DNA from: Chiloscyllium plagiosum
Lineage: Eukaryota
Reading direction: 5' to 3'
Length of the DNA: 64,000 bases
NCBI RefSeq assembly: GCF_004010195.1
Contig: NC_057719.1
Location: 21,156,418 to 21,220,417, forward strand
Position numbers and translations under genes: made by a program. The notes beneath the pieces are model-generated. The model had not been told where the DNA came from and made no database searches. It saw only the letters and a program-made list of their open reading frames with translations. Positions 11,815 to 64,000 of the stretch are shown piece after piece (the stretch's first letter is position 1; every line of letters starts with the position of its first letter).

Positions 11815-11964
11815 AATGCGCATCAGCCATGATTGAATGGCGGAGTGGACTCGATGGGCCGAATGGCCTTACTTCCACTCCTATGTCTTATGGTCTAACT
11901 GCTGTGCTGAGATGTATTCCCAGATTTGTAGCTTGTGCTAAACTACCACAATTGTGCCACAATT

Positions 11965-12327
11965 TACAAAATTAAATATCACACAACACCAGGTTATAAT
12001 CCAACAGGTTTATTCGGAAGCACTAGCTTTCGAAGCGCTGCTTCTTCATCAGGTGGTTGTGAAGCAGGACCATAAGACACAGAATTTATAACAAAAGATT
12101 ACAATGATACAATGATATCTTGAACAAATGTAGATAGTTCCCAATCTATCAATGTATCATTGTATCACTGTAATCTTTTGCCATAAATTCTGTGTCTAAT
12201 GGTCCTGCTTCAAAACCACCTGATGAAAGAAAAGCCAGTGCTTCAGAATAAACCTGTTGGACTATAACCTGGTGTTGCGTGATTTTTAACTTTGTCCACC
12301 ATATTCCAAAACCAGCTCCGCCAAATC
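11965..12327. mobile_element. Palindromic PLE family B mini-insertion
   Basis: Inverted arms ~11965-12119 / 12146-12297 matching the pLTR of the PLE at 43880-46133; TSD CACAAT(T/C)TACAA. Confidence 0.85.
12021..12055 (-). ncRNA. Minimal hammerhead ribozyme motif (family B), intact core
   Basis: Minus strand CAC-CTGATGA-A-GAAGC(AGC)GCTTC-GAAA-GCTA-GTG. Confidence 0.75.
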
Positions 12328-12562
12328 ACAATCTACAACTTCCTATCGACTAGTCTGCACCTTTGTAGAAACTCACAAATCAGATTTCATTGGGAAGTTC
12401 CATGAAACTTCAGTCACCAATCCAATGAGCTATTGTATGTACTATGAGTAGTCACTCAGCTCAAAGCTTTCTAATTGTTCAGCATGCTGTGCTTTTATAG
12501 AACACTAATTTGGGAGGTTGTGGCATAGTGGTAATGTCGTTAGACTAGTAATCTAGAACGAG

Positions 12563-12688
12563 AGAAAATGAAGACTGCAGATGCTGGAGAGGAGAGTCGA
12601 GAGTGTGGTGCTGAAAAAGCACAGCAGGTCAGGCAGCATCCGAGGAGCAGGAGAATCGACATTTCGGGCAAGAGCCCTTCATTGGAAT
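12563..12688 (-). mobile_element. PLE family A 3' end fragment
   Basis: Matches the reverse complement of 4540-4660. Confidence 0.8.
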
Positions 12689-12759
12689 CACAATCTAATG
12701 CTCAACTCAGCAGAATGTTCTATTGTCAGCATCGCAGTGAGGCAGTCTGGGAAAAAAGT

Positions 12760-13002
12760 AGGTAAAAACAATGACTGCAGATGCTGGAAACCAGAGTCTC
12801 GATTAGAGTGGTGCTGGAAAAGCACAGCAGTTCAGGCAGCATCCCAGGAGCAGTAAAATCGATGTTTTGGGCAAAAGCCCTTCATCAGGAATACAGCTGT
12901 ATAACCTGTATTCCTGATGAAGGGCTTTTGCCTGAAATGTCGATTTTACTGCTCCTCGGATGCTGTCTGAACTGTTGTGCTTTTCCAGCACCACTCTAAT
13001 CT
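12760..13002. mobile_element. Palindromic PLE family A mini-insertion with two hammerhead motifs
   Basis: Arms 12803-12896 / 12906-13002 are reverse complements; CTGATGA-AGGGC(TTTT)GCCT-GAAATGTC at 12914; TSD TCTGGGAAAA. Confidence 0.85.
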
Positions 13003-13058
13003 GGGAAAAGTGTACTGCAGTCAGCATCACAGTGAGGCAGTCTGGGAAAAGTGTACTG

Positions 13059-16932: not shown

Positions 16933-16934
16933 AA

Positions 16935-23780: not shown

Positions 23781-25956
23781 ATGATATAACTCCTGGCCAA
23801 TTCCAGAACTGACACCCTCCTCACCCATACTCACAACAGCCATCTGGTTCCTTGACCCCATCAATACCCACCTTCAGCTCACACAAATTCTCATACAACC
23901 ACTTGACCATCACCCTACCAGTTCGGTCTGGTGTTTCCAGACCCACCTACCCACTTACCTTGCACATCTACTTATCCATTCACTTCGCCCACTCTTTCAG
24001 TTATTAAAATTGGATGAGGAAAGATGATAGAGTCATACTTATGTCACTGTACTAATAATATAGGGTGTACTGGGACAATGGATTCAAGACATGGCACAGT
24101 TGGAGGAGTTTAAATTAAATTGCTAAATTGGAAACTTGAAGCACCAAGTTATCATTCATTGTCAAAGAGACCTGTCTGGTTCACTAATGTCCTTTAGGGA
24201 AGGAAATCTACCATTGTTACCTGGTCTGGCCAAAATATGGCCCAAGCTACAACAATATGATCCACTCTAACGCCTTCTGAAACAGCAGTTTAAATGTTCA
24301 GTTTAAAGGCACCTATGAATTGGCAAACAAAAAATGTTGGCCTTGCCCAAAAGGTCTATATTCCCATGAAAGAGTGAAGAAAGAAAAACGCAAAAGCTCG
24401 ATAATTTCCAGATGGCAACCTCTGCTGTTAAAAGGGCTGTTTCTGACTTTCCCGTCTCTGATTGGCTTCACCCAAGTTCCACAAGGGAGGTGCTCTCAAT
24501 ATTTTGGAAAACGCCAGGCTTGAAAGTTTCCAGAAGTAATGCAGAGCAGCAATCGAATCACTGGGAAAGTTCAAGCAGAGTACCGATCGGATTATGATAG
24601 TCATTCCTCAGAAGATCTGGACCCACTTTTGCCCAAAGCATGAAACATCAATTTAAAAAAATAAGTGGATGTATGACATTTCAGATCTGGTCTACCAAAG
24701 CAGACCATTTAAAAGCGACAAAGTTGAGTCAATGAACTTTACTAAAATAGACCCTATTGATGCTAGGGCATGCTTGCACACTCAAGAGTGAGACATATTT
24801 TCGTGGTTGTGGGTATGTTCGCCGAGCTGGGAAGTTGATTTGCGGATGTATCTTCCCCTGTCTCGGTGATATCTTCAATGCTGTGGAGTCTCCTGTGAAT
24901 GCTGTACTGTGTCTTCTGGAATGTATTTGGTTCTGTTTCTGTTGCTTCTGGTTGCCAGTTCCGGTTGTTCGTTGTAGTGGCCAGTATATTGGGTGCATGT
25001 CAATGTGCTTGTTGATCGAGTCTGTGGCTGAGTGCCATGCTTCTAGAAATTCTCTGGCTGGCTTCTGTTTAGCTTATCCTATGATTGTTGTGTTGTCCCA
25101 GTCGAATTTGTGATCCTTGTCATCTGTGTGTATGGCTACTATGGCTAACAGAGATCAAGAACACACACTAGACTATCAACACTATACCCACAGGGATCAG
25201 ATTCACAAAAGAGGAGAAGCCAGCATTCAACTCGGATATGATGATACAAAGAACACAGAATGGTGAATGCACCACAAAAGTGTACAGGAAAGCCACACAC
25301 ACCGACTGGGTCCTGAATTACAACAGCAACCACCCAAAACACACAAGAGAAGCTGCATTAGGACCCTGTTCAAAAGGGCTACAACACACTGCATTAAGGG
25401 AGTGCTGTGACAGAAAAAGAAGAACACCTCTACAGAGTATTTGCCAAGAATGGATATCCTTGCAACTTCATCTGCAGATGTCTAATAGACAAACAACGTG
25501 ACAAGGACACGCTATGACCTAACTCACTAGCCACGCTACCTTACATAAAAAAATCTCTCAGAACTGACAGCCAGACTTCTCCGACCGCTCGGATTCATGC
25601 CAGCCCATAAACTGACAGCCACGCTCAGACAACAACTCACCAGAACAAAAGACCCTATACCCATCATGTGTAAAACTAACGTAATTTACAGGATTCCATG
25701 AAAAGACTGCATGAAACATTACATAGGGCAAACAGGCTGACAACTAGCAATACGCATCCATGAACACCAACTAGCCAGTAAACACCATGACCAGCTGTCC
25801 CTTGTAGCCATTCACATAGACGACAGGGACAACACGATGGTCATAGGACAGGCTAAACATAGGAAAGCAAGAAAATTTCTAGAGAGTTTTGAGAAGATTT
25901 GTAGCTCAGGTTGAGGTTTTGGATGTAGGTTTGCTCGCTGAGCTGAAAGGTTCATT

Positions 25957-25998
25957 TCCAGACGTTTCGTTACGTTACTAGGTAACATCTTCAGTGGA
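25957..25998 (-). ncRNA. Minimal hammerhead ribozyme motif (family C), intact core
   Basis: Minus strand TCCA-CTGAAGA-T-GTTAC(CTAGTAAC)GTAAC-GAAA-CGTC-TGGA. Confidence 0.75.
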
Positions 25999-27284
25999 CC
26001 TCATGCGAAACAATGCTGAAAATTCCTGCTTTCTATTTATATGTTTGGGTTTCTTTGGGTTGGTGATGTCATTTCCTGTGATGTTATTTGCTGTGGTGAA
26101 GTCACTTCCTGTTCCTTTTCTTAGGGGATGGTAGATAGGATTTAACTCGATGTGTTTCTTGATAGAGTTCCGGTTGGAATTCCATGTTTCTAGGAATTCT
26201 CGTGTAAGTCTTTTGTTTGGCTTGTCCTAGGATGGATGTATTGTCCCAGTCGAAGTGGTGTCCTTCTTCATCCATATGTGAGGATACTGGTGAGAGAGGG
26301 TCATGTCTTTTTGTGGCTAGTTGGTGTTCATGTATCATGGTGGCTAGTTTTCTGCCTGCTTGTCCAATGTAGTGTTTGTTACAGCCCTTGCATGGTATTT
26401 TGTAAATTACATCAGTTTTGCTCATTGTCTGTATAGGGTCTTTCAAGTTCATTAGCTGCTGTTTTAGTGTGTTGGTGGGTTTGTGGGCTACCGTGATGCC
26501 AAAGGGTCTGAATAGTCTGGCAGTCATTTCCGAGATGTCTTTGATGTCGGGGAGAGTGGCTCGGGTTTCTGGACGTGTTTTGTCTGTATGTTTGGACTTG
26601 TTGCTGAGAAATCTGTGGACTGTGCTCATTGGGTACCCATTCTTTTTGAATCCATGAACACAGTCCACCAATTTCTCAGCAACAAACCCAAAGATGCAGA
26701 CAAAACACGTCCAGAAACTCGAGCCACTCTCCCCGACATCAAAGACATCTAGGAAATGACTGACAGACTACTCAGACCCCTTGGCATCACGGTAGCCCAC
26801 AAACCCACCAACACACTAAAACAGCAGCTAATGAACTTGAAAGACCCTATACAGACAATGAGCAAAACTGATGTCATTTACAAAATACCGTGCAAGGATT
26901 GTAACAAACACTACATTGGACAAACAGGCAGAAAACTAGCCACCAGGATACATGAACACCAACTAGCCACAAAAAGACATGACCCTCTCTCACCAGTATC
27001 CTCACATATGGATGAAAAAGGACACCACTTCGACTGGGACAATACATCCATCCTAGGACAAGCCAAACAAAAGACTTGCACGAGAATTCCTAGAAGCATG
27101 GAATTCCAACTGGAACTCTATCAACAAACACATCGAGTTAGATCCCATCTACCATCCCCTAAGAAAAGGAACAGGAAGTGACTTCACCACAGCAAATAAC
27201 ATCACAGGAAATGACATCACCAAAACAAAGAAACCCAAACATATAAATAGAAAGCAGGAATTTTCAGCATTATTTCGCATGAGG

Positions 27285-27326
27285 TCCACTGAAGATGTTA
27301 CCTAGTAAGGTAACGAAACATCTGGA
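27285..27326 (+). ncRNA. Minimal hammerhead ribozyme motif (family C)
   Basis: TCCA-CTGAAGA-T-GTTACC(TAGTAA)GGTAAC-GAAA-CATC-TGGA. Confidence 0.7.
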
Positions 27327-28160
27327 AATGAACCTTTCAGCTCAGTGAGCAAACCTTCATCCAGAATTTCTAGAAGTATGGCACTCAGCCACGGACTCCA
27401 TCAACAAGCACATTGACCGCCACTCAATACACCGGCCATTACAATGAGCAACCGGATGCAGCAGAAACAGAACCACATAAATTCCAGAAAACACAGGACA
27501 ACAGTACTTCACAGGAGGGTCCAAGGTACCAATGATGTCACCTAGACAGAGGACGAAACATCTGCAAATCAATTTTCCAGCTCGGCAAACATATCCACAA
27601 CCATGACAACTGGCATCTGAGCTACAAATCTTTACACAAACGTAAAGGGAGGTATACTGATTACAAACTCTGACACATTTTTTACTTGCTGACACACTAA
27701 GTTTTCAGTGTTGCATACAGTATATCATTAATCTTAAAAACTGTTCCATCTGTAATTTCATCAGCATAGGCTGAAATTTCTGTTTCTCACCCATGGTAAC
27801 AATTTGATCAAACAGTGACGCTCACCCCTGGATCAAGCTTAAAAATAACGAGCAGTTAATTGACATAAACTTGTTTTGTCAAATTGGAGTTGATGGACCA
27901 CACATTTGCCCTAAGAATGAATATACTTCATATATTTTCTAATGCAGTGGTTCTACCACATTAATATCTTAATGTATGAGTAGCTATTTGACCTTATGCT
28001 GTTCTGTATCTGTGTTCCACTTCTATGGAATATGTTTTCTGGAAGTGACCTACAGTGAAGGCATTTTTTTCATAACAGCTTGTGAAGCTTCTTTGTTTTG
28101 AAGCACTCTCTTGTAGTTTCTGTTGGCCTATCATGTTTGTTTTTAGGGTTTTTGTCCCTT

Positions 28161-37468: not shown

Positions 37469-39977
37469 GCACTCACCAAAGTGCCTTAAAATATATCATC
37501 ATTCTTTCAGTGTCATTCAGTCATATCCTGGAAATCCTGCCTGAAGGGCATTGTGGGTCTACCTACAGCAGATACACTGCAGCAGTTCAAGAAGGCAGCT
37601 CACCACCACTTTCTCAAGGGCAACTAGGGACAAGCAGTAAATGCTGGCCTAGCCAGTGATGCTAACATCCCATGAATGAATAAATTTAGAAAAAGGTCAT
37701 CACAAACAAGTTGCCAGTCACAGAGAGTGGCATATTGCTTGGTTTCTATGCTGAACTGGCCTTCAGGCTGTGTTTGCTGGGGCAGAAGAGATGGCATATG
37801 ATGTGGTGGAGAAGATCTATTGATCAGACCCAGCAGTGGACCAGAGATTGTTTTACAGTATTGGAGAATCATGAACAGCATGCCAGAAAAATGTTCTGTG
37901 CCTTCTTGAACAGCCTGAAGCAGTCCCTTTTAAGTGTCATTATGTAATAAGTACCTCTCAATGGGACCTTTGATAATCAGATTGCTTGTTTCCATTGTTT
38001 TATTAAAAGTTATTAAAATCATTTATTCATAAAGGCAACTTATTAAGGTGACCCAGTTATTTCCCTCACCAAATAAAAATAAATAATTTAAAACACTCTC
38101 TTGGGATCTTGTAATAAACTCTTCCAAATTGATCTGCAATTTCCTGGAATAGTTTTCCAAACATAGTTGCATACTATTGATTATTCTGTTAAACTCTGAT
38201 GGGGAGATCATACAACTTTCTCCGTCGTGTATTTGAGCTTTGCAAGCTCTCTTTGTAACATGAGATTTAAAAACATGAAAATGAAGATCATGAAACAGGG
38301 ATTATCTATTCCACTGGTATCAGGTCATTACGAACATGAGGGGAAGCTAAGATTAAGCAAGGAAGTACTTACATGGAATGAAATTGGAGTTTTACACTGG
38401 AGTGAGGAATCATTTGTCTGTCTGCTCCTTTTTCCCATGAGCCTTGCTTTATCTAAAGATACCCCTTTTTTTTCCAAAAGGGGTCTGTTTGACTGTCCTA
38501 ACTGCCCTCCATCACTATTGTCAACTGCTGTTGGAATTCCTGCTACAGTCGCTTGCGCTCCCCAGCTCAGAGAATTTTCTGTTACACATTTTTAAATTTA
38601 TTTAAGCAGTATGTAACAGATCACCTACCTCACAATGCTAAGACTCATACCGAATAAAGGCTACTATTCTCAGTTTCTTCATAGCACAATATCTCAGGAA
38701 AAATAAAGATGCTATGTAAGTGCAATGATTTTAAAACTTCAATTTCTCAGGTTTAATAGTCTTTGTCTTTACGAACCGCTCCACCACAATCTTCATACTT
38801 CTACACTTGCCCATCCATTCTCCCGTGCTTTCTACATGTTGCAGTCCAATTTATTGAGTTTATCTTTAGCAACGGAGAGGGATGGTCATATACCCCAGGG
38901 CAAGAGTTATAGCTGGGGAAAGGCAATTATGATGCGATTTGGCAAGATTTAGGATGCAAAAGATGGGAAAAGAAATGCAGCAGATGGGCACAATTAAAAT
39001 GTGGAGCTTGTTAAAGGAACAGCTACTGCATGTCCTTGGTAAGTATGTACCTGTCAGGCAGGGAGGAAGTGGTCAAGTGAGAGAACTGTGGTTTTCTAAA
39101 GAAGTTGAATCTCTTGTCAAGAAGAAGAAAGAGGTTATGTAAAGATGAGATGTGAAGGCTTAGTTAGGGCGCTTGAGAGTTACAAGTTAGCCATGACGGA
39201 CCTAAAGAGAGAGCTAAGAGGAGCCAGGAGGGGACATGAGAAATCTTTGGCAGGTAGGAAAGGAAAATCATAAAGATTTCTATAGGTATGTCAGGAATAA
39301 AAAAATGATGAGGGCAAGATTAGGGCCAGTCAAGGACAGCAGTGAGAAGTTGTGCATGGAGTCTGAAGAGTTAGGAGAGGCGCTAAATGAATCTTTTCCA
39401 TCAGTATTCACACAGGAAAAGAACAATGTTGTTATGGAGAATACTGAGATACAGGCTATTAAACTAGATGGGATTCAGGCTTATAAGGAGGAGATGTTAG
39501 CAATTCTGGAAAGTGCGAAAATAGATAAGTGCCCTGGGCTGGATGGGATTTATCTGAGGATTCTCTGGGAAACTAGGAAGGAGATTACAGAGCCTTTGAC
39601 TTTGACCTATATGTTGTTATTGTCTACAGGAATAGTGCCAGAAGACTGGAGGATAACAAATATTGTCCCCTTGTTCAAAAAAGGGGAGTAGAAACAACCC
39701 TGCTAATTATAGACCAGTGAGCCTTACTTCTGTTGTGGGCAAAGTTTTGAAAAGGATATAAGAGATACGATTTATAATCATCTAGAAAGGAATAATTTGA
39801 TTAGGGATAGTCAACACGGTTTTGTGAAGGGTAGATCATGCCTCACAAACCTTACTGAGTTCTTTGAAAAGGTGACCAAACAGGTGGATGAGGATCAAGC
39901 TGTTGATGTGGTGTATATGGTTTTCAATAAAGCATTTGAGAAGGTTACCCTTGGTAGGCTATTGCAGAAAATACGGA

Positions 39978-40120
39978 TGATGTGGAGGAGCCAGTGTTGG
40001 ACTGGGGTGGACAAAGTTAAAAATCCCACAACACCAGGTTATAGTCCAACAGGTTTATTTGGAAGCACTAGCTTTTGCAACAACCACCTGATGAAGGAAC
40101 AGGTTGGACTATAACCTGGT
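39978..40120. mobile_element. Small palindromic PLE family B insertion inside CR1
   Basis: ACCAGGTTATAGTCCAAC ... GTTGGACTATAACCTGGT; imperfect TSD TATTGCAGAAAATACGGA / TATTGTAAGAAAATAGGGA. Confidence 0.8.
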
Positions 40121-40839
40121 ATTGTAAGAAAATAGGGAGGCATGGGATCGAGGGTGATTTCACAGCTTGGATCAGAAATTGGCCAGCTGTAAGAAGACAG
40201 AAGGTGGTGGTTGAAGGGAAATGTTCATCCTGGAGTTCAGTTACTAATGTTGTACTGTTTGTCGTTTTTATAAATGACCTGGATGAGGATATAGCAGGAT
40301 GGGTTAGTACATCTGCGGATGACACTAAATTCGGTGGAGTTGTAGACAGTGTGGAAGGATGTTGCAGGTTACAGAGGGACATAGAAAAGCTGAAGAACTG
40401 GGCTGAGAGGTAGCAAATGGAGTTTAATGTGGAAAAAAGTGAGGTGATTCACTTTAGAAGGAGTAATAAGAATACAGAGTACTGGACTAATGGTAAGATT
40501 CTTGGTAGTGTGGATGAGCTGAGAGATCTCGGTGTCCATGTGCATAGATCCCTGAAACTTGCCATCCAGGTTGATTGGGTTGTTAAGAAAGCATACAGCG
40601 TGTTTGCTTTTATTGGTAGTGGGATTGCGTTTTGGAGCCATGAAGTCATGGTGCAGTTGTACAAAACTCTGGTGCGGTGGCACTTGGAGTACTGGGTACA
40701 GATCTGGTCACAGCATATTAGGAAGAATGTGGAAGCATTGGAAAGGGTGCAGAGGAGATATACCAGGATATTGTCTAGTATAGAGAGAAGGTTTTATGAG
40801 GAAAGGCTGAGGGACTTGAGGCTGTTTTCCTTAAGGAGA

Positions 40840-41149: not shown

Positions 41150-42243
41150 GATGATCAGAGGATTAGATAGGGTAGACAGTGAGGGCCTTTTTCCTTGGAT
41201 GGTGATGGCTAACACAAGGGGATATAGATTTAAATTGAGGGATGATAGATATGGGACAGATATCAGAGGTAGTTTCTTTACTCAGAGAGTAGTAAAGGCC
41301 TGGAATGCTTTGCCTGCAACAGTAGTGGACTCGCCAACATTAAGGGCATTTCAATGGTCCTTGGATAAGCATATGGAGATAAAGTAATAATATAGGTTCG
41401 ATGGGCTTTAGATTGGTTTCACAGGTCGGCGCAACAGAGAGGGCCAAAGGGCCAGTACTGCGCTGTAAATGTTCTATGTAACCTTGACAGATTTCACATA
41501 GGACACTTTCACCTCCACATGATCAGCTGAGAGGAACTATGGAACCTGGAGGGAACTTACATAAATAATATAACTGAGCAAATGGCAGATCTCAATGTAG
41601 AGAACAACGACTATGAAAATGCCACAGGTTATTTTAAAATCATTTATAAAGATGAATAACTATGATTCTTTCAGGTTTCAGGAAATAGATATTTTTGAAT
41701 CACTGAGTGTCTTCTTCGACTACACTGTTTTGCAGTTTGTTTCATATGTTAAGCATGTTTTACTTAAAGAATTTCATTATCTTATATTTCATGCCAGAAT
41801 TCTGGAAACAACCCTCATAATCTGAAAAGTTCTATCACATCTCCATCAACAAAGAAAAATCCCTATGTATGATGTCACAGCGTTTGTCCCAACTCGGTAC
41901 GGTTCAGTTGGAATTTGTTAGTCCTTCCTTCAGTTCCATTTCACATTAAACACAGCATCTTAGAATCTGTTACATTGAAAATACATACCATTTTAAAATA
42001 TCTTTTTTTTAATGTCTGTGCTATATATTTTCTTTAAGGATACCCAAGATCATGTTTTTTGTTTAACAACTGAAATACTGAATTAATAACCTTCATGACA
42101 ATGTTCTTTCTCCAGCTTGCATTGGGGACAAGGTTGTGATATTATTGTAATGTTGTTGTAACTGGTAATCTAGGGGCCCAAAATAATTGTTTGGGAACAT
42201 GGGTCAAAATTCCATCGTGGAAGCTGTTAGGATTTAACAACAA

Positions 42244-42445
42244 CAGATGTTGCTGGAAAAGCTCTGGCAGCATCTGTGAAGAGAAATCAGAGATAACTGA
42301 TTTTTGTAGTTTTGCAGTTGTGAGGAACCGAAACGTTAACTCTGATTTCCCTTCACAAATGTTGCCAGACCTACTGAGCTTTTCCAGCAACTTCTGGTTA
42401 TGTTTCTGATTTACAGCATCCACTATTTCTTTTGGACTTTATCTG
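42244..42445. mobile_element. Older palindromic PLE (family A-related) inserted in a tRNA SINE
   Basis: GTTGCTGGAAAAGCTC..AAATCAGAG / CTCTGATTT..GAGCTTTTCCAGCAAC; imperfect TSD TAG.ATTTAA.AA.AA. Confidence 0.65.
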
Positions 42446-43879
42446 GTAGCATTTAATAATAATCTAGAATGTTAAGCAAGTCTCATTAATGTCAACTGAC
42501 AGTGATTGTTGTAAATATCTATTTGGTTCATGAACATACTTTAGGGAAGGATGTCTAGTTCACATGAGACTCCAGACCTATAGCAATGTAGCCAATGCTA
42601 AATTGCTCTCTGAAATAACCCAAATTCAGGAAAAGTTAGAGATTGCCAACACACAACAATTAACAATCCTATTCCATGAGAGAATGAAAGAAAATGAAGG
42701 ATTCATACTAGGCTACATTTTTTTCTGGCAAGCGCAATCATTTTAAAATTGGTTTTAGTTGGTTCTGCCATATTTATGTCTAGACTCAACTACCTCTTGC
42801 AGAATTTCTAAACAGTTGCTGTCATTTACTCCCGCTTTTCATGCCATCTTTACAATGAAATGCTGAATCATGTAAAATGTCAATCATACAGCTGTAGACT
42901 GATGCTGCAATAACAAAATGGGCAACCAGAAAAAAAATCAACCATTAAGAATTAGTGAAAAACAATGTACCTTGTAATTTTTGAGGTTAGAATCCTTATT
43001 CTTGGTCAGATGAGAGGATAAGTAATCTTTTTCTTTCAAAGTGGAGTCGGGGAAATGAAGTTATCCTCTTCCTTAAAGCAATGGAAAATGGATGGAATGG
43101 AAAGAAAAGGTGCACTGTAACATAAACAATGTGAGATTATTCATTTGGCAATAAGTATAATAAAACAGTATACTTTTTAAATGTGAAAAACTTGTATTTG
43201 TTGGTGTTCTGAGAGACGTTGGTATGCTCATTCAAGGTTAGACGGAAGACTAACATAGAGATATACTAAGAAATAAGGAAGGCAAATGGAAAGCTTACTA
43301 CAATGGGATTGAAGTCTGTGCAAAGTACCCTGGGGTCTGTCACGATGCCTACATCATTGAGAACTCATGTTCTTGCTCCAATTCAAGGGCCAGGTGCCTT
43401 ACAATGATGGTTACTGAGAAACCATGGCTAATGATTCTGTCGGCTTGTTGAAGGTGAGGGTCTCATGCTTGGATCAGTCTGCAGGTAGCCTTGCAGTCCA
43501 ATCCAGACAGAGAGTGCCACATATTCCCAGTTAGTGTACCATGTAAACTGCCTGTTCTGCACAAGTGGTGCAGGCAAAGTGGGCATGCTTTGAAATTCTC
43601 TAAAAGTGACACTCGAAAATTTTTGATAAATTCCAGCCCAAACTATCAATAATGGTCCATTTTCCCATTTGATTATGACATATCCTTGTAGCATGAACGA
43701 GCTGGACCAAAGGGTGTGTTTCCATGTGGTATGACTCTAACAAAAATCTACCAACATCGTTGTCAATTACTCAAGTATCCACAGATTTCCTGGCAGAGAA
43801 TGTTCCAGATTTCCATGACCTTTCATGTAAAAACACCTTTCTTGATTTTGTTGCATAATTCTATTAGGGTAATAATCAG

Positions 43880-46133
43880 GATTTGAAGATGCCGGTGTTG
43901 GACTGCTGGTGTACAAAGTTAAAAATCACACAACACCAGGTTATAGTCCAGGTTTAATTGGAAGCACACTAGCTTTTGGAGCGTTGCTCCTTCATCAGGT
44001 GGTCGTGGTCGGCTCAATCCTAACACACAGAATTTATTGCAAAAATTTACAGAATGTTGTAACTGAAGTTATACATTGAAAAATTGATTGTCTGTTAAGC
44101 CTTCCATCTGTTAGAATACCAGGACAGTTTCACTTCTTTCATGTGTAAATCACAAAACCTTTTTTTAAAAAGGTTGCATTCTCAGGTTAGCTGTTAAAAA
44201 TGGTGATAGCTAGACAATATGTTGAAGGTGTTAGCCCCCTGTGTTCTCTGTCTATGCCATGATGTTTAGATTGATTGTAATCTAAAAAGTCAGATAATGG
44301 AGTTTTGCATGAATTCATGCAGTTTTGAGCAAAGTACAATGTAACCCTGCAAGTACAAATTCACCCCACAAANNNNNNNNNNNNNNNNNNNNNNNNNNNN
44401 CAATGGTGGTCACCTGTAATGTGACATGAACCCAAGGTCCCGGTTGAGGCCCTCCCTATGGACTTAGCTATCAGCCTCTGCTCGGCCATTTTTCGCTGCT
44501 GCCTGTCCCGAAGTCCGCCTTGGAGGATGGTCACCCGAAGGTCCGAGGTCGAATGTCCTGGACCACTGAAGTGTTCCCCAACTGGGAGGGAACATTCCTG
44601 TCTGTTGATTTTTGTGCTGTGCCCATTCATCCGTTGTCGTAGCCATTGCTCTGTTTCCCCAATGTACAATATCTCCGGGCATCCTTGCCAGACAACGTTG
44701 ATTGAGTCACATGAGTACCTGCCATGTACAAGGTTGGAGGTGTCCCCATGCATAATAGTGGTATCTATGTCCACACTCTAACACGTCTTGCATCGCCTAC
44801 CATGACAGGGTTGTATGGAGTTGTCCTGAGAGCCGGGCAGCTTGCTACGAACAACTATCTGTTTGAGGTTTGGCGGTTGTTTAAAGGCAAGTAGAGGAGG
44901 TGTGGGGAAGGTCTTGGTGAGGTGCTCATCCTCATTGATAATGTGTTGCCAGTCACGAAGAACATGGCGTAGTTTTTCAGCTCCTGGGAAATACTGAACA
45001 ACAAAGGGTACCCTGTCGGTTGCAGCATGTGTCTGTCTCCTGAGGAGGTCATTACGATTCCTTGCTGTGGCACATCGGAACTGGCGGTCGATGAGTTGGG
45101 CATCGTACCCCGTTCTTGTGAGGGCATCCCTGAGTACTTCCAGGTGTCTGTCACGTTCCTCCTCATCTGAGCAGATCCGGTGTACGCGTAGGGCTTGTCC
45201 ATATGGGATGGCTGTTTTAATATGTTTTGGGTGGAAGCTGGAGAAGTGAAGCATTGTGAGGTTGTCTGTGGGTTTGCAGTAGATTGTGGTGCTGAGGTGT
45301 CCATCCTTGATGGAGATGTATGTGTCCAAGAATGAGACAAATAGTCGAGAGTAGTCCATGGTGAGTTTGATGGTGGGATGAAACTTGATGTCACTGTGTA
45401 GTTTTATCAGTGACACCTCACCATGGGTCCAGAGGAAGAAAATGTTGTCAATGTACCTAGTGTATAATGTTGGTTGGAGATCCTGCATAGAGCAGAAGTC
45501 TTGTTTGAACCTGTGCATAAAGATGTTGGTAATATTGGGGTGCACATTTCGTCCCCATGGCTGTTCCACGGGGACCCTCACAGACTTAAGACACTCTGCA
45601 CTCACTACACACAAACATACACTTTCCCACACTCACAACCCCTAACCCAGACAGACACACAGACAGACAAAGACTCACATGCACACATATATTTTGTGGA
45701 GTGAATTTGTACTTGCAGAGTTACATTGTACTTTACTCAAAAACTGCATGAATTTATGTAAAACTCTGTTATCTCACTTTTTAGATTAGAATCAATCTAA
45801 ACATCATGGCATAGACAGAGAACACAGGGGGCTAACACCTTCAACACATTGTCTAGCTATCACCATTGTTAACAGCTAACCTGAGAATGCAACTTCTTTT
45901 AAAAAAATGTTTTGTGATTTACACATGAAAGAAGTGAAACTGTTATGGTATTCTAACAGATGGAAGGCTTAACAGGCAATCAATTTTTCAATGTATAATT
46001 TCAGTTACATCACACTGTAAATTTTTGCTATAAATTCTGTGTTACGATTGAGCCCTCCACTACCACCTGATGAAGGAGCGACGCTCCGAAAGCTAGTGTG
46101 CTTCCAATTAAACCTGTTGAACTATAACCTGGT
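43880..46133 (-). mobile_element. PLE family B (Neptune-like): RT C-half, Cys linker, GIY-YIG, 3' pLTR and an upstream inverted pLTR
   Basis: YTRYIDNIFFLW, HPKHIKTAIPYGQALR, PCHGRRCKTC, LYIGETEQ.LRQRMNGH; arms ~43937-44372 / 45690-46133; perfect TSD GGTAATAATCA. Confidence 0.9.
46064..46098 (+). ncRNA. Minimal hammerhead ribozyme motif (family B), intact core
   Basis: CAC-CTGATGA-A-GGAGC(GAC)GCTCC-GAAA-GCTA-GTG. Confidence 0.75.
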
Positions 46134-47996
46134 AATAATCACATACAGGAAGTCATGCAATGTCAAATGATCTGAATCTTTCTTGCAGGAATTTGTGGCA
46201 AGATATGGTTATAGAGAGACATAGCTTAATAACGTTAACGTTTCTCTACCAGTGCAGACTGTAAATATTCCTCAGTGACACAATAAGGTAAAGATATTAA
46301 GGAACTTACTTTTAAATAGCAGAGTGCTAATTTTAAGATCAGTTGCTTAAAGGCTTGACTGTTCAGGATATCTTTTTTACAAGATAGAGATACTTTGTAC
46401 TCAAATTAAGTCCTTTTTTAAACACTTTAAACAAGTTAAACAACTCAATCAACTCAATCAATCATCGGTTAAACTTCTAAATGCCAAGGAATGGTAACAA
46501 CCTTTTCCAATCTCTTCTTATAATTTAATATTTACACTCCCATTTGGAATCTGCAGAATTGACATGAAATATTTGAACAGATTTTCAAATCATTGGCATT
46601 AACCATGAGGAGATGCTCTATTAATTTAGTTTAACAAATGGCAATCTCGAACAGATCAGCATGCACCTCACTTCCTTTCAGAAGGTTTCTTTGTTTCTGC
46701 TGTACTTCAATGTATAATCTATGATTCTGTTTATTTGAAACATGTATTTGAAACAATTTATATCAGTAATTGCTTAAAAATAACCTCATCCGTATATTTG
46801 AGAAAATACACAATTTATATTTCTATAAGAGTCAAGAAAAGAAGTATTTCACAGATCTTAAACAACTATATTAATCACCAGGGTATAATAGCTTTATAAT
46901 TATATTGCTGGAGTGGTAATCCAGAGGCACGGATGAATAATTCAGTGACATAAATTCAAATCCCACTTTACCAACTGGGAAATTTAAATTCAATTAATTA
47001 AGTAAGTCTGGAATAAAGATCAAGGGTGGAGTTTTCCATTCTGTTGAGTGGCATGGGCTATGGTGGGAATTTAAGGAAAAATCAAATTCTGATATCAAGA
47101 AAAATATTTTTGATTTTCTCCTTCAGCTTTTAATAGTGCGCTCAGAACCTCACTCATGAGCAGCGACTACTTTCATTCCAATTGTGATGATTTCATTATT
47201 AGTTAATAAACTCCCAATTCTTCCCTTCTTCCATGAGAAATCAAAATGGCACAAATTCCTGACATGAAACTCACTGTGGTTACCTGGGCATAGCAAGTCA
47301 GGTACTTGGTCCTGTCAGAGGCTGGGGATCAATGCTTTTGTAGTCGTGGGGTTGGTCCATGGTCAATCCAAAAGGTCAAGTGCAACCAATCTAGCAAAAG
47401 CAGGTACGTCACTTGGTGTTCTGACAAGGCATCAGTCCAGAGGCAGTCTCACTGATTCAGTTTGGGTGTAGGCTTTAGGTAGCTCTAAGTGTTTGGGAAT
47501 TAGGGTCAGGGGCCAGTCCGTAGAGTCATGGGCAAACTGGAAAGCTCCAGTCTGTGATTGGGCTTCACTGGATTCAATCATTATGGGATTGGTAGTAGTC
47601 AAAGTGGACAATTTAAAATAGAAGGATGGGGTCTTGTAGATCATTGGAGAGAATGGAGAGTTTCAGCAGTGGGAGGTTCAAAGGTCACAATTATTCTGGC
47701 CTCCACGTGACATGAGTGTATGGCAAACTAGGGTATGGTATTTCATAAAGCCATGGGCTCAGGAGTGAATTGGGGACATTAACAGTAATGTAAAGGGGCT
47801 AAACAAAATAATGAGGAAAGGACTGAAAGTCATTGGAAATGCAAGGAAAGCAACAGAAAAGAGATCATGAAAGTTAGGGGTCATCTAAGGCAGAGGCTGC
47901 AAGTCACTCACGAGGACACAAAATTCAACAGAACTTCAACTACACAATAATGTTACAAAATAGACACTACATGCAGTGTGGGCAGAGTAAGTTGCT

Positions 47997-48200
47997 AGGC
48001 AAAAGTGAGGACTGCAGATGCTGTAAACCAGAGTTTAGATCAGAGTGTTGCCGGAAAAGCACAGCAGGTCAGGCAGCACCCGAGGAGCAGGAAAATCGAC
48101 ATTTCGGGCAAAAGCCTGATGAAGGGCTTTTGCCCGAAACGTTGATTTTCCTGCTCCTCGGATGCTGCCTGACTTGCTGTGCTTTTCCAGCACCACTCTG
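47997..48200. mobile_element. Palindromic PLE family A mini-insertion
   Basis: Inverted arms meeting at ~48115; CTGATGA-AGGGC(TTTT)GCCC-GAAACGTT; TSD AGAGTAA(G/A)TTGCT. Confidence 0.85.
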
Positions 48201-48744
48201 AGAGTAAATTGCTGTTTTACACTCCGTGCAGAGCATAATTCTTCGCTAGGGACACCATCTGGCATCAAAATGTAATTCATTGGCAGGTCATTTGTTTTGC
48301 ATGAAAAAAGGTTATAGCCTCAAGCAATCAAGACCATTATATTGTTTGACACCTTATCTTAGATATGTAAATCTATCCAGACCCTTGATATGATATCTGG
48401 GACTGGAGAGATTTTCCTTTATAAATGTACACCATCAGGAATGCTAATCTGATCTCCCCTCTCTATCTGCCATAGATGCAGTGATGGGTTTTTACCTTCA
48501 GCATGGCACTTGTACCATTCCCTTAATGATTACATCTAATGAACCTCAATCACAGACTACAGCTTCCGAGTGATACTTACATTTAGTTCTTATGTAACAG
48601 GAGCGAAAGTAAGTCTAATACTGAAAGACATTTATCACAGCTCCTGTTATCTAAATATATTACAATTGCACAAACTGTTGTGAGCAATTTGGTTACAAAC
48701 TGTTGCACCATGACATACTGAAGAAATACGCAAGTGGCCTCTGT

Positions 48745-58076: not shown

Positions 58077-59840
58077 TAGTCAACCACATTTCTGTGAGGC
58101 TGGAGTCACACGTAGGCCAGACCAGGTAAGGACAAGAAATTTCCTCTCTGAATGGCATTGGTGCATCAAATGAGTTTTCACAGAAATTGATGATTGCTGT
58201 ATGATGATATAGATTTCAGGCCAGACAGGCCAGTATTTTTAAGACAATTACATGGTATCACAATATATAAAGTTCTACTATAAAAGGTACTCACCACCCC
58301 TTCTGCCACTTTGTTTTGTCTAATGGAGTCAGTGCACTGTCTTCATTTAATTATTCAATGTACAATAGCAGCTGTAAACACAGCACCCAGACTATATGCG
58401 CAAATCTGGGATATTGTGGCTGTGTATGTAACTAGTGTTGTTAATAAATTTCATGATACCTAACACAACAAGAACCTGAGTTTTTGTGATATAGGGCACA
58501 GGTACATGGGAACAAGAGTAGGCCATTCACCCTGTTTCACAGATTAATATGATCCTAGCTGATCAAACAGATCAATGCCTTTTACCCTCATTATTCCCCC
58601 ACCCTTTTACATCAATGGTATTCAAACATTTTTCAACTTTCGTTTAAATATACTCAAGTTTCCACAGCCCTTCAAAGCTCATCTGGGATCAGTCCTGTGC
58701 TTAAGGATTGCTAAGATTAATTTGTAATGATCAATGGATGGTCAGGATTGTCAATGACCAAGATTTATTTCCCACATTGTTGGTCATTGCATAAACTTTC
58801 GAATTCTATTATAACAGATATTGTTTGAAATATCAAACCTATGGATGCCTGATTTATGCAGTTTCTCCATGAAGGGCCTCAATCATCTACAAGTGGAGCC
58901 TTAGAAAAAAGAAAACAACTTACTCTGTTTATCTTGGCTGTGCTGGCAGTCACATTTCACGTTCACTGCAGAGCTGAGATTTGGTTAAAGCTTGGTTAAA
59001 GTTTGCAGGCTTTCCACATTGTACTGGTGAGAGTGAATTGCAGGCACTGCCTGTATTGTATGCATCCCACTCGATCATCAGGCTCCATGCTGTATTGAGG
59101 TTCCACTCCATCAGCTTTGAGTCTCCCTTCTTTCCCACACGATCCAATTAAGTATTCATATCTCCAGTTTATACTCCAAGGCCCAGACAGTCCACATAGC
59201 CATATCTAATTTCATTTTCCACTGTCTCCACAAGCCCTGACAATACTGATAACTAAACAAGATCCTTCCTCCCACCTCATAGTATATTGGCTCCGAATCT
59301 TATCTCTAGAGTGGCCACCTTCACTGTGATTGTCGCCTCGGAATCCCAGCACAATGTCTTCAATCCCCACACTTCCTTTCCTCAGTTTAAGGTAATTCCC
59401 CTTAATGTTTATTACCTAGTCACCCAAGCCTTGCCCCTGGACTAACTTGGGAAGACCAACGTGAGCAAAATTGGATAAGATCCCTGAATGATTTCTGTCT
59501 AGCTCCCTAACTAACTTTTCAGCAATCCTTGGACTGGTTAGACTCAACCTGCAGAACTGACTGTGGCCCAATCACTGTAATGTAAGGACACAGAGAGCCA
59601 GGTCCTGACTACACCAAGCAGATGGCTGACTGTGGTTGAACCCACTAGACTGAGATCAGATGATACCCTTGACTGTCTGTGGTGGTGCTCCCTGGCGGGC
59701 TCTCAGCCGGAGGATTACTGTCCCTAGATTTTCAGACAGGTTTCTCATGGAAGCTGGAGATGTGACATTGACACAGCACAATGTCATACAGCAACATGAG
59801 CACCCTCTTGGCTGTTCAGTGCTGGGCAACAGGATAAGTT

Positions 59841-60200
59841 TAAAAATGTGTTGCTGGAAAAGTGCAGTAGGTCAGGCAGCATCAAAGGAGAAGGAGAATC
59901 GACGTTTCGGGCATCAGCCCTTCTTCAGGAATGAGGAGGGTGTGCCAAGCAGGCTAAGATAAAAGGTAGGGAGGAGGGACTCACCTTAACCTCCTTCCAC
60001 CTATCGCATTCCCAACGCCCCTCCCCCAAGTCCCTCCTCCCTACCTTTTATCTTAGCCTGCTTGGCACACCCTCCTCATTCCTGAAGGGCTGATGCCCGA
60101 AACGTCGATTCTCCTTCTCCTTTGATGCTGCCTGACCTGCTGCGCTTTTCCTGCAACACATTTTTAAGCTCTGATCCCCAGCATCTGCAGTCCTCCCTTT
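59841..60200. mobile_element. Palindromic PLE family A mini-insertion
   Basis: Arms 59841-59981 / 60030-60167; perfect 14-bp TSD CAACAGGATAAGTT (59827 and 60201); matches the pLTR at 4440-4660. Confidence 0.92.
59897..59933 (-). ncRNA. Minimal hammerhead ribozyme motif (family A), intact core
   Basis: Minus strand TC-CTGAAGA-A-GGGC(TGAT)GCCC-GAAA-CGTC-GA. Confidence 0.7.
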
Positions 60201-61781
60201 CAACAGGATAAGTTGCCTACCTTTCTCTCTGTGCAGAAAGGCATGGAAAGAAAAGCTATTGTGAGCTTGTAATTCCTCAATGAAGTAACAAATGCTCAAA
60301 AAAGGTAAGCCAAAGCATAGCCCTGTGAGTGTCCAAGTAAGCATAAAGAGAATGAGTGCTAAAAATAAGCTAAGACCCATGAGATGACCAGGCAATGACC
60401 ACTTGCAACAAGAGAAAGTTTAAACATTGTCGCTTGACTTCAATGGCGTTACCAAGACTGAATGTCCCACAATCAGCATCCTCGGGTTTAGCATTGATCA
60501 GAAACTGAACTGGACTAGCCCTATAAATAGAATGGCTACACAAGCAGGTCAGGGGTGGTTGGCAATTCCTATACATGCCAAAGATCTCTGCATAAGGGCA
60601 CAGAGTTGCTTTTCTCACACATTGAACTGTGAGAATGTTAGAACATTGTCTTGCATGAAATGCTGCATTTCTTTTGTGATGAGGTTGGAAAGGGTATGGT
60701 GGTAGTCAGAAAGTGTGGTGCTGGAAAAGCACAGCCGGTCAGGCAGCATCCGAGGAGCAGGAGAGTCGAAGACCATGAGCTCTTCATCACGAATGGGTGG
60801 TGGGGTGTGATGTGGTGGGGGACAAGCTTTCAGTAATCCTACAGCACTTAGAATGTCCTATTGTGTTTGTGCCATGTGCTTTGTATAGCAGACAATAGAA
60901 TAATGTCTAATATGTCAGAGGTCAATGCAGAGAAATCCATGACCCTGTTTGTCAGTGACCTCCATGTCCAACTATATCAGGGTCATGATAAAGTCGTTTG
61001 TGACTCCTCAGCTGTCACATATTACAAGGAGCTGCTTTGTTTCAATATTTCTCACAATGTCAATGCAACCATCTTCAATTAGTCTAGCCACGACTGGTTT
61101 AATAATTGTTGTAGTTGATTTTTAACAAAGTTGCAGAGATGGAACTAGATTAGCTTGGCATGGACGAATTGGAACAAAGGGTCTGTTTCCATGCGGTACA
61201 TCTCTATGACTCTCTAAGTTGAGAAGAATAATGGCACCAGCAAGCTCAGGACCTTTTTTGTCATTGGTTTAATGTATTTAGGTCAATGTATACCTGCAAA
61301 AACATTTTTAAAAATTCTGTACCAAAATATGTTCAAAACAAAATAATTTAATGGAAGGAGTCTGGAATAGTCTGAAGCAAGATTGCTTGTAGGCTCTGGG
61401 GTTGGAGTGTCCTTCAATGTATGCACTGCCTGGGACTGAGCATCAGGAAGTGCTTTCTGGCTCCATTGCCTTTGATGCCGATAAGCACATTCCCATAATC
61501 CCCATCCCCTTTGCCCCTTTCCCCTCCTATTATTCACTTCTGACCAGGAATCCAGCAATGGTATAGCCCTTACGTGGTTCTTCTGATTAGAGGCAGCTCT
61601 TAGCCAGTTTTCACTCCTGGGGTGCCTGATCCCAAGGAAAGGCCTGCCACTGGTAAGCCAAGTATCTGATTGGGGAAGATGCAACAGGTCTTCCTGAAAA
61701 AAAGCACTGCAGGTCTCTTGCTGACTTTCTCGTCAATGGCTGATATCCCTATTGCTTTCACACCCTTACATTTTTTAACCC

Positions 61782-62432
61782 TGATTTAGAGATGCCAGTG
61801 TTGGACTGGGGTGTACAAAGTTAAAAATCACACAACACCAGGTTATACTCCCAACAGGTTTATTTGGAAGCACTAGCTTTCGGAGTGCTGCTCCTTCATT
61901 AGACAATTGTGGAGCATCAACTCTCCTACTCCTCGAATGCAGCCTGACTGGCTGTGCTTTTCCAGCACCACACTTTTTGACCACCACCACACCCCTTCCA
62001 ACTACATCACAAATGAAATGCAGCATTTCATGCAAGACAATGTTCTAATATTCTCACAGTTCGATGTATGAGAAAAGTAACTCTGTGCCCTTATGTAGAG
62101 ATCTTTGGCATGAATAGGAATTGCCAACCACCCCTGATCTGCTCATGTAGTCATCCTACTTATAGGGCTAGTCCAGTTCAGTTTGCTGATTGTGGGAGAT
62201 TCAGTCTTGGCAACATCATTGAAGTCAAGCGACAATGGTTGAACTGTCTCTTGGTGCAGGTGGTCATTGCCTGGTCATCTCATGGGTCTTAACTTTTTTT
62301 TAGCACCTTGTGCTTGTTTGGACATTCACAGGGATCTGCTCCACAACCACCTGATGAAGGAGCAGTACTCTGAACGCTCATGCTTCCAAATAAACTTGTT
62401 GGACTATAATCTGGAGTTGTGTGATTTTTAAT
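61782..62432. mobile_element. Palindromic PLE family B insertion enclosing an inverted copy of 60321-60769
   Basis: Arms 61788-61916 and 62337-62431; 61917-62333 is a diverged reverse complement of 60321-60769; TSD TTTTTTAACCC. Confidence 0.85.
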
Positions 62433-64000
62433 TTTTTTAACCCAAGTTTGCAATCATGTTTGGGGCAGTGTGCATGTAAGTGGATACAATTTAAAAAACT
62501 TTTTTGACCTAGTACTTTAGAGATTAATACTGACTGCTTTTAATCTCTGGTTATGTATTGCTTAAAACCAGTTGCACTCAAGCCACAGACTTAACTTAAT
62601 GGTTCAATGACTGCACCCCAAAGCACATGACATTATTCGTGGAGTTTTGAGTGTTGAGCCTGCATTATGAAGGTATTAGATTAAAGCGATGTAGCAGATT
62701 TTTTCATGCATCTGACACTGCAAACAGGGTAATAACATAAAGACAGGACCGAAATTATGTCAGCAGGAATTGTAAAGGAAAATAATCTTTATGATGAAGG
62801 TTGAATAATCAACCATCCCTTTTCAGGCAAATATTCCAACCCTAAGGTTCAAGATAAATTTCTAAGGATTACCAGTACAAGAGAATGACTTCTTAATGAT
62901 GCCTTTGTTCAGGAGGGACACATCCCACGTTTTCACACATGCCAGTGATATAATAAAGTGACATCTCCAATGCTCCTGTGTAATCAAGTAAATCATTAAG
63001 TACTGTCCTGAATGGAAGTGTGTGACAACTTGACAGAGAGAAATTTATCATTGCTTTCTTGGGAATTAATGAAGTTCCCAAATTTTAATGAATTACTTTC
63101 AACATCAGCGCTGTCTTCCCTGAGCTATGGCATTGATTAATACTTCATTTTGAAATATTTGTGATACAATAGGCAGACTTCTTTGGACCTTTCTCCTCAT
63201 TGGGATGGTAGGTCCTCTGCAAAAATGTTTCTTTTGAAGTTGGCATTAATCTAACAAGGTCTTGGTTGACAATAAATATCCATGAATTTCGAAAATAATC
63301 AGAAATAAAGTCAAAAACGATGAAAATGTGGAGCAGGCCTGTCTACAATCGAAAGAGAAAGATAAGATGATGTTTACATTATGTAGCAGAGGTGATTGAG
63401 ACTTCAGTAACTTGCAGCATTGGTGCAAGGTTGTTTTCTGGGTCTTGTCCATTTTCTAGCATTTATGGGTTCCCCTCTAAGAGGCCATTGGCCTGGGAGG
63501 ATGCTGAACACAAGGCTCAGAAGGCTTCTTTAGGTGAGGACCAGACTGAGTTGAAGAAGGGTTAAATCAGAAACTATGTGAAGGTAGTGAGAGCAGCAGA
63601 TGGAGTCCAGGACTGGTGAATTGCAGCACTGGAGGGAAAAAAAACACTGAAATGACAGCCCAAGGACTATGGGAATGGTTAGATGACTGGAAAGAGAAAT
63701 TGGAGCAGATTTGTCAACTGGAGACCTAGGCAGACCATTTGTATAACACCCTAGACCCTGAGAAGTGAAAAGAGAGGAAGATTCTCTTCCTGCTGGGCAA
63801 ACAACATAACTTGGTTCCGTGATCTTGGGGAATTAGTACAGCTGGCTCCACCAAATGAACATTGTTACTTTGCTGTTGAGAGATCAGAAGCTCATCTTCA
63901 AAAGGTCCAGCTAGTGGATCTAGAGTGCCAAGCAAATGCACTTTGTCTTGTTTCTCAGAATACAACTTTTCCATTGAATTCTTCATTCAATTGTTTCCAA

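Follow-up and report, generated by a model that had tools for sequence, protein, structure and literature searches.

Ten inverted units in a 64,000-nt stretch of Chiloscyllium plagiosum contig NC_057719.1 (the window, to which all coordinates refer) are each, with high confidence, the product of a single dead-on-arrival insertion of an endonuclease-positive (EN+) Penelope-like element (PLE), with an anatomy known for the class. They are old, broken PLE copies in the already described inverted-copy-plus-tail pattern, and the finding is for that reason mostly ordinary. All ten are head-to-head pairs with the PLE 3' ends facing outward, as a preliminary description of this DNA had stated; its reading of them as simple palindromes holds for most units and fails for C2 (24800) and A3 (43880), which combine a long body with a short inverted arm, and for A4 (61782), in which 424 bp of copied flank lie between the arms. 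Four sequence families are represented, A (A1–A4), B (B1–B3), C (C1 and C2) and D (D1), and not three as first reported. Inverted arms were detected at nine of the ten sites by self-BLAST and a repeat finder; at the tenth, A2 (39978), the arms are short and internally deleted and are visible in the family alignment.

Anatomy and family identity of the units

In family A, unit A1 (11965; 11958..12338) has a short minus-strand arm (11970-12123) and a tailed plus-strand arm (~12142-12327), 90% identical to each other, within a target-site duplication (TSD) of 11/12 matching positions (11958-11969 / 12327-12338). A2 (39960..40138) sits within a CR1-type LINE and retains deleted arms at 39978-40077 (minus, tailed) and 40078-40122 (plus, short), bounded by a gapped 18-19 nt TSD. 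A3 (43868..46141) has a tailed body (43880 to ~45568, minus) with an assembly gap at 44373-44400, followed by a short inverted pLTR (~45575-46133, plus; arms 94% identical; perfect 11-bp TSD, 11/11), and A4 (61771..62443) carries arms at 61782-61917 (minus, tailed) and ~62341-62435 (plus, short) that are 85% identical and share a perfect 11-bp TSD (11/11). In family B, B1 (12760; 12746..13011) has arms at 12760-12896 (minus, tailed) and 12906-13001 (plus, short), 93% identical, with a TSD of 10/10 in a LINE remnant encoding RT; B2 (47997; 47984..48213) has arms at 47997-48114 (minus, tailed) and 48115-48201 (plus, short) with a TSD of 12/13; and B3 (59841; 59827..60214) has arms at 59842-59981 (minus, short) and ~59980-60200 (plus, tailed), 98% identical, with a perfect 14-bp TSD (14/14). 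The older Poseidon-type copy C2 (24795..27641) comprises a short inverted arm (24798-25140, minus) and a long tailed body (25141-27641, plus), 78-83% identical; its body is interrupted by C1 (25884; 25874..27374), whose 713-nt arms (25885-26651, minus, tailed; 26652-27366, plus, short) are 95% identical within a perfect 10-bp TSD (10/10). The decayed arms of D1 (42244; 42224..42456) lie at 42238-42297 (minus, short) and ~42325-42442 (plus, tailed), with a TSD of 12/14.

The coding remnants of A3 follow the order RT motif (YIDNIF), RT thumb, CX4CxxC linker and GIY-YIG remnant (YIGET), which is the single-ORF order of RT and C-terminal GIY-YIG characteristic of EN+ PLEs, as read from fragments. 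The arms of C1 also encode a GIY-YIG remnant, matching the Pfam GIY-YIG model at E 8e-4 and 20 bits, under the 22.6 cut-off; A3 reached only E 0.07 with this model, and its RT fragment was undetected by the Pfam search. Atlas matches (0.96) were to eukaryotic clusters with PF26215, one of them also with RVT_1 in 19% of its members. The CCHH motif, with CxxC between GIY and YIG, is present in C1 as VIYKIPCKGCNKHYIGQ plus later His residues and is decayed in A3. A CX2-5CxxC linker precedes the nuclease in family A (A3 reads PCHGRRCKTC); this linker is the published criterion of the Neptune/Nematis clades (PMC8557442), and family A would by sequence fit either of the two. In the C1 and C2 translations no such linker was found ahead of the nuclease, and family C fits the Penelope/Poseidon clade. 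Units A1, A2, A4, B1–B3 and D1 contain no coding sequence and were assigned to PLEs by pLTR similarity and the hammerhead.

The hammerhead arms of the preliminary description stand in part: a pattern scan found the intact core of this predicted ribozyme in 7 of 20 arms, from families A, B and C, and in both arms of C1 only, the core being lost in the other 13. An Rfam search returned nothing at the gathering score, and relaxing the limit to E 10 over C1 revealed no hammerhead; the centre of C1 scored below threshold against miRNA models, as a generic long hairpin. The preliminary description expected dsRNA hairpins if the units are transcribed. In RNA run X21 (~2% of reads), no reads fell on unique sequence beside three units; the depth of unique bins was 0-0.4, and the reads collected in repeat bins came from other copies. 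Mismatch places in these reads, which are not locus-specific, showed no excess of the A-to-I editing types, numbering A>G 39 and T>C 43 against C>T 46 and G>A 37. The copy number of the pLTR families is very high, with 335,000-453,000 contigs per DNA run matching a 17-kb stretch, all repeats pooled.

Evidence for single insertion events

Among 27 pLTR copies, neighbours no more than 30 nt apart comprised nine head-to-head, no tail-to-tail and no tandem pairs, and random placement gave a mean of 0.03 head-to-head neighbours and a maximum of 3 in 100,000 trials. Of 17 pLTR-bearing insertions counted across the window, 10 are inverted pairs. A significant TSD of 10-18 bp accompanies nine units, eight of them at p<0.01 as scored against random position pairs, and the gapped repeat of A2 was matched by 0 of 5,000 such pairs; no TSD was detected for C2, including with an adjusted unit end. 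The nine repeats reported earlier were thus recovered, and the four given as perfect (25884, 43880, 59841 and 61782) are so. In each of the nine a single TSD spans both arms, the family B arms are mutual nearest copies in six of six cases, and two proxy empty sites have a single TSD copy, all of which bears out the earlier proposal of single insertion events.

With families of such high copy number, the arms might have inserted independently side by side, or been joined in assembly. Against this stand the exclusively head-to-head arrangement, the one TSD across both arms, arm-to-arm differences of 2-22%, and contigs from another sample or related organisms that contain junctions of B2, B3 and A4; independent insertion or artefact is contradicted by this evidence and is very improbable. 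The contigs, from two related organisms and another sample, were compared with window positions 47000-64000, which cover these three units. Flank contigs enter B2 on both sides (organism C), B3 on the left side (organisms B and C) and A4 on both sides (organism B), with overlaps of 23-30 nt, slightly below the 31-nt bridging standard; since unique flank is joined to the units in related-organism contigs, the insertions are shared with those organisms. No contig skipping from TSD to TSD, as at an empty orthologous site, was found among the 15 of ~8,200 joints listed.

Short size, inverted arms and TSDs would also be expected of true MITEs, which a transposase copies as palindromic DNA units, and in contigs from other loci some centre positions close to the hammerhead recur (15 of ~8,200 joints listed). 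However, the identical centres, symmetric ends and fixed short TSD by which MITEs would be recognised were looked for, and in the window the ends are asymmetric, the TSDs vary from 10 to 18 nt and no two centres are alike among the nine compared; because the centres differ, the units are not MITEs. The arms moreover hold PLE coding remnants and hammerhead cores, so that a MITE origin, contradicted in the window on these grounds, has hardly any likelihood. Head-to-tail tandem hammerhead units, as in non-LTR retrozymes, were likewise not found among the 27 copies (no tandem neighbours within 30 nt).

The one-sided tail and its short ends

In all ten units one arm retains the natural 3' end and the other stops short, as had been described. 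The short arms of the nine TSD-bounded units lack 31, 41, 33, 55, 38, 56, 43, 33 and 35 nt, and that of C2 lacks ~32 nt (read from the alignment); the deficit is thus 31-43 nt in eight units and 55-56 nt in two, across four families. An inverted 5'-truncated copy with a one-sided 30-40 bp tail and a TSD is published PLE anatomy (PMC3846280, PMC8557442, as far as these accounts were available), the asymmetry is this PLE 'tail', and the suggestion that it was under-described is not supported. Nor is there support for a random stop followed by microhomology repair, as had been thought, since the tail has been assigned in vitro to two RT start sites (PMC11167929, available text).

Microhomology with the target is present at nine of nine short ends tested, amounting to 1-4 nt against the partner arm and up to 5 nt against other family copies; the total of 19 over nine units compares with a null mean of 3.5, and 0 of 20,000 draws were as high. 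The 3-7 nt first claimed is thus replaced by 1-5 nt: GGT at 46131 is upheld, TCT at 13000 matches other family copies while the partner arm shares no more than TC, and near 62430 the overlap is TTT instead of the supposed TTTTTAA. The family C short end falls in an AC-rich loop. Conservation of a predicted terminal stem-loop across copies is suggested; covariation gives no support, with a both-sided change in 1 of 42 predicted pairs, and the folds are weak (z -1.6 to +0.4).

Formation of the second arm

We consider it plausible, with about even confidence, and slightly favour the view, that the second arm was formed by fold-back of the cDNA. The GIY-YIG nuclease would cut both target strands, 10-18 nt apart to judge from the TSDs; two-strand cutting is known in vitro for a lizard PLE (PMC11167929, available text). 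RT primed by one target end at the outer start site would produce the tailed arm, and the cDNA would end early, its 3' end folding onto its own strand and being extended by DNA-templated synthesis, at times perhaps after a false start or by way of a detour through the flank. Pairing of 1-5 nt at the inner start site would let the second target end prime on the sense copy, with loss of the second arm's tail; this site lies 31-56 nt inside the 3' end, mostly within the loop of the terminal stem-loop.

Short loops favour fold-back, as both arms start no more than ~50 nt apart in eight of ten units, including C1 with its 713-nt arms, and so does a bias in arm length. The tailed arm is longer toward 5' in A3, C2, C1, B3 (by ~47 nt at the centre) and D1, which makes five of seven decidable units (A1, B1 and A4 are ties). 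The account also agrees with the single TSD of nine units, the single TSD copy at the two proxy empty sites, the deficit of 31-43 nt in eight units, close to the published tail length, and the microhomology at nine of nine short ends. The centres of C2 and B1 repeat 6-8 nt from the start of one arm (in B1, 6 nt of the second arm). Further support comes from the A4 centre (61917..62340, minus), an inverted copy of nearby DNA in which 383 of 424 aligned bases agree with 60314-60769 (plus strand); this donor takes in a segment of a solo family B pLTR (60712-60794), the rest of which lies beyond the copied part. The centre was copied from the strand bearing the tailed arm's cDNA, 1.0-1.5 kb upstream, which requires DNA-templated synthesis during the event. 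Outside the PLE set, a CR1-type LINE unit used as a control (646..1784) has the same geometry as the PLE units: a LINE piece (1008 to ~1290, minus) is followed by an inverted copy of that piece plus upstream flank, with a 7-bp direct repeat (1002-1008 / 1776-1782). Fold-back is therefore not PLE-specific, and L1 insertions with self-annealed inverted duplications have been reported (10.1101/2024.12.14.628481, available text).

Other observations weigh against fold-back, the assessment of which rests on ten old copies. The tail-less arm extends further 5' in two units, in B2 (47997) by 9 nt at the centre that are absent from the tailed arm and similarly in A2 (39978), so that simple fold-back, and with it the snap-back cDNA of the preliminary description, would require a later central deletion there. 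The solo family B copy ends at the tail-less site and has no partner arm, the A4 arms are not nearest mutual copies, and the stem-loop folds are weak. A PLE protein studied in vitro nicks each strand, extends both, and begins synthesis at either boundary of the tail; this accounts for the asymmetry with no need of a fold-back.

This activity leads to a possible, less probable account in which both strands are nicked by a dimeric PLE RNP, synthesis on RNA starts from the two target 3' ends, at the outer start site for one and the inner for the other, and host end-joining links the two cDNAs head to head, at times with a templated patch. Twin priming of this kind draws on the lizard protein PAc, which cleaves both strands and extends them, has two start sites at the tail boundaries, and was given a dimer model (PMC11167929, available text); short ends clustering 31-43 nt inside with microhomology, as for an internal primer, and the AC-rich loop of family C agree with it, and it accommodates B2 and the solo tail-less copy. 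Alone, however, it predicts neither the closely spaced arm starts in 8/10 units nor the 5:2 bias towards a longer tailed arm unless the RTs share one RNA, and DNA-templated fold-back is evident in this genome from the A4 flank copy and the CR1-type unit. An inversion preceding integration, by self-priming on an antisense or read-through template with nuclease trimming of one end, was proposed by Arkhipova 2013 (PMC3846280) and Craig 2021 (PMC8557442; both in their available text). Centres at or near short palindromes in B1 and C1 would suit it; it leaves unexplained both the new-site flank DNA inside the A4 centre and the target microhomology at the short end, and we think it improbable.

As a tentative and rather doubtful extension, fold-back may routinely close PLE insertion. 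The tailed arm would then always be the first cDNA strand and would serve as DNA template for the inverted arm, whose inner RT start site would be where the second target end is primed. If so, the inverted pLTR and the one-sided tail, both unexplained PLE signatures, would be joined in one cycle, and the huge copy number, with flank of the new site captured now and then (A4 is a case), would allow a test by counting. Our literature search, with subscription journals largely outside its coverage, found no paper stating this model.

Comparison with known systems

Since PLE anatomy is known, the finding by itself changes little. Where short TSD-bounded units are as numerous as in this genome, polarity, loop size and junction overlap can be counted, and later steps of PLE integration are still described as unvalidated (PMC11167929, available text); in annotation, such units could be mistaken for MITEs or microRNA precursors. 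Complex EN+ PLE insertions, in the available accounts (PMC3846280, PMC8557442), resemble the present units in the head-to-head inverted 5'-truncated copy inside one TSD, the 30-40 bp tail at one end, palindromes at inverted junctions and host DNA between pLTRs. They differ in that the TSDs here are 10-18 bp, versus 8-10 bp in rotifer examples, most units comprise only the last 100-700 nt, and two lack 55-56 nt; the DNA captured in A4 derives from the flank of the new insertion site itself, copied in inverted orientation, for which no parallel was found in the available parts of these accounts.

PAc (Poseidon of Anolis carolinensis; Frangieh et al. 2024, PMC11167929, available text) shares with the units two 3' end positions bounding the tail, an AC-rich stem-loop start (family C), an ATG in or beside the hammerhead, and AT-rich targets. 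Initiation by PAc is reported to occur where homology with the cleaved DNA is absent, in contrast to the overlap of 1-5 nt at the short ends in this genome, and inverted arms are not explained in that account as available. The motif here resembles the minimal hammerhead in its CUGANGA core, stem II with an extra 5'-side base, GAAA, and palindromic positions replacing helix III; the minimal hammerhead has low activity in vitro and needs tandem dimers, whereas the two motifs here lie on opposite strands, giving one sense motif per transcript. Local inverted duplication and twin priming of L1 (10.1101/2024.12.14.628481, available text), with self-annealing of the TPRT end, short microhomology and flank copying, match the CR1-type unit and the A4 centre; inverted duplication is rare for L1, whereas here it marks 10/17 pLTR-bearing insertions, with a fixed tail offset.

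Inverted Penelope-like units in the window

The preliminary description of the window (64 kb, 42% GC, three N gaps) had placed in it ten inverted units, each a pair of 3' ends of Penelope-like elements (PLEs), and this was borne out with small corrections: a self-BLAST of the window recovered local inverted pairs at nine positions, and the tenth, at 39978, was visible in the family alignment. The orientation is head-to-head in all ten. Same-family neighbours no more than 30 nt apart were head-to-head in nine cases and never tail-to-tail or tandem, the mean at random placement being 0.03. More than one PLE family is present, as had been proposed, but the arms sort into four rather than three: A (units at 11965, 39978, 43880 and 61782), B (12760, 47997 and 59841, plus five solo copies of the terminal repeat, or pLTR, that lack an inverted partner), C (24800 and, nested inside it, the younger 25884) and D (42244, along with two solos, both decayed). 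As the arms within units are only 78% to 98% identical, these are old insertions, not mis-assemblies.

The unit at 43880 retains part of the reverse transcriptase (RT), a CX4CxxC linker and a GIY-YIG remnant, and its sequence on these grounds points to the Neptune/Nematis type; in the unit at 25884 a CxxC lies within the GIY-YIG core and the linker is missing, a combination that points to Penelope/Poseidon (clade criteria from the available sections of PMC8557442). The Pfam GIY-YIG match lay slightly under the cut-off, Atlas neighbours stood at 0.96, and database support for PLE identity was modest. The minimal hammerhead core, as defined by Cervera and de la Peña 2014 (PMC4209133), in the available text of which the word 'shark' does not occur, is intact in seven of the 20 arms; Rfam detected none of these cores.

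Other repeats in the window include an old inverted duplication (75%) of a PLE-like RT region at approximately 32390-33450, with neither pLTR nor hammerhead and no clear target-site duplication (TSD) by eye, and a long LINE remnant at 7610-10725 made up of a 723-aa frame for endonuclease and RT (Pfam Exo_endo_phos, RVT_1) with another ORF upstream of it. Two AT-rich inverted pairs (55348-55524/56768-56941 and 47536-47594/48513-48571; 80%, spacers of about 1 kb) did not match the pLTR families and are possibly DNA-transposon ends.

One RNA run, of which about 2% was read, left the unique bins of 47000-64000 nearly empty, and there was no sign of any function for the units; the formation of dsRNA hairpins, suggested earlier, is neither favoured nor disfavoured by these reads. 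In the same run, X21, 611 reads, which derive from other copies, maybe at few loci, carried a T-run just before 61851, i.e. a poly(A) approximately 15 nt past an AATAAA that the family A pLTR contains. All genomic 3' ends are downstream of this site, which means that RNA polyadenylated here would not serve as the template.

Asymmetric ends and target-site duplications

One arm was expected to run to the 3' end and the other to stop short, and this is what we found: the short arm lacks a tail of 31-43 nt in eight units and of 55-56 nt in two, the value for 24800 having been read off the family alignment and end comparison, separately from the TSD-bounded units. In predicted folds of the terminal stem-loop, which are weak and large-looped and for family D come from a single sequence, the eight shorter truncations fall in unpaired parts and the two longer ones at the 5' base.

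Direct repeats, reported earlier for nine units, were significant at eight of the ten in a first test of the flanks and at 39978 with its right end placed correctly; 24800 was the exception, with no significant repeat at its flanks in either test. Short ends overlap the TSD in nine of nine testable units (19 nt summed over all, where the null mean is 3.5), the microhomology at these ends being smaller than described, 1-4 nt instead of 3-7 nt. Such overlap also occurs outside short ends, the perfect 11-bp TSD of the solo copy at 29326-29453 starting with the element's last bases.

The units behave as single insertion events. As empty-site proxies, the 10-mer duplicated at 25884 is single-copy in the inverted arm of the host element, and a 12-nt stretch doubled around 39978 is single in another CR1-type copy. 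No true empty site was found among the joints listed for contigs of relatives over 47000-64000; junction contigs of 47997, 59841 and 61782 were present in relatives with a flank divergence of approximately 4-5%. In family B the partner arm was the nearest copy in six of six cases; the family A ranking is confounded by the very short arm of 39978, and the arms of 61782 are not nearest neighbours of each other. Besides its TSD, the unit at 12760 has one 33-38 nt stretch of host LINE repeated on its two sides (12727-12759 and 13021-13058).

Among the solo family B copies, that at 29315-29464 has a perfect 11-bp TSD, of the size class seen in paired units, and no inverted arm, and that at 60712-60794 stops at the tail-less position, some 35 nt early, and has neither a partner arm nor a convincing TSD. 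In four of the five (12565-12688, 21835-21967, 29328-29453 and 60712-60794) the hammerhead core lies no more than approximately 15 nt downstream of where the copy starts, which may mark a hot spot of 5' truncation or the edge of a subfamily. Loose-end consensus from hundreds of contigs/reads at other loci runs past the ends seen at 61782 (family A, about 5 nt) and at 60201 (family B, about 4 nt).

Flank capture and the origin of the second arm

The centre of the unit at 61782 is a 424-bp inverted copy of 60314-60769 (90% identical), with short imperfect matches where copying entered and left the segment. The upstream region is the donor, since its pLTR fragment runs on past the copied part, and the template is the strand that would carry the cDNA of the tailed arm. 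A non-PLE unit of the same geometry, a CR1-type LINE at 646-1784 and one of the window's youngest inverted structures, contains an inverted copy of itself (150/155) and then of its upstream flank (308/316; about 320 bp, 97% identical), enclosed by a 7-bp direct repeat. Both resemble the inverted duplications of L1 insertions that are put down to self-annealing in the available part of 10.1101/2024.12.14.628481. These two cases show that DNA-templated fold-back occurs in this genome; they are not proof for every PLE arm.

If the second arm were made by fold-back, the 3' end of the cDNA copying its own strand, the whole content of the short arm would recur within the tailed arm. It does so at 43880, 24800, 25884, 59841 and 42244; the units at 11965, 12760 and 61782 are ties, and 47997 and 39978 are contrary to fold-back, a five-to-two bias without statistical significance. 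Palindromes can lose bases at their centre to trimming once they are inserted. Arms start within approximately 50 nt of each other in eight of the ten units. We give fold-back about an even chance of being the source of the second arm. Twin priming, by which both nicked target strands would prime RT on the RNA, each at one of the two known start sites, accounts no less well for the fixed offset, the microhomology, the unit at 47997 and the tail-less solo at 60712, and is a possible, if less likely, origin; self-priming before integration appears improbable.

Relation to described PLE anatomy

In the available sections of Arkhipova et al. 2013 (PMC3846280), an inverted pLTR is 37 bp shorter, with a 31-bp tail on one side and TSDs of 8-10 bp; palindromes at the junctions, capture of host DNA and an empty site that was confirmed are also described, and self-priming is proposed. 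The parts available of Craig et al. 2021 (PMC8557442) present an inverted copy with a one-sided 30-40 bp tail as typical, and those of Frangieh et al. 2024 (PMC11167929) report that both strands are cut and extended and that the tail is bounded by two RT start sites. Among the listings returned by our literature search, there was no shark-specific description of such units. The units add members to an already described PLE anatomy, and their remaining value lies in polarity and flank capture, which can be counted given a full assembly.
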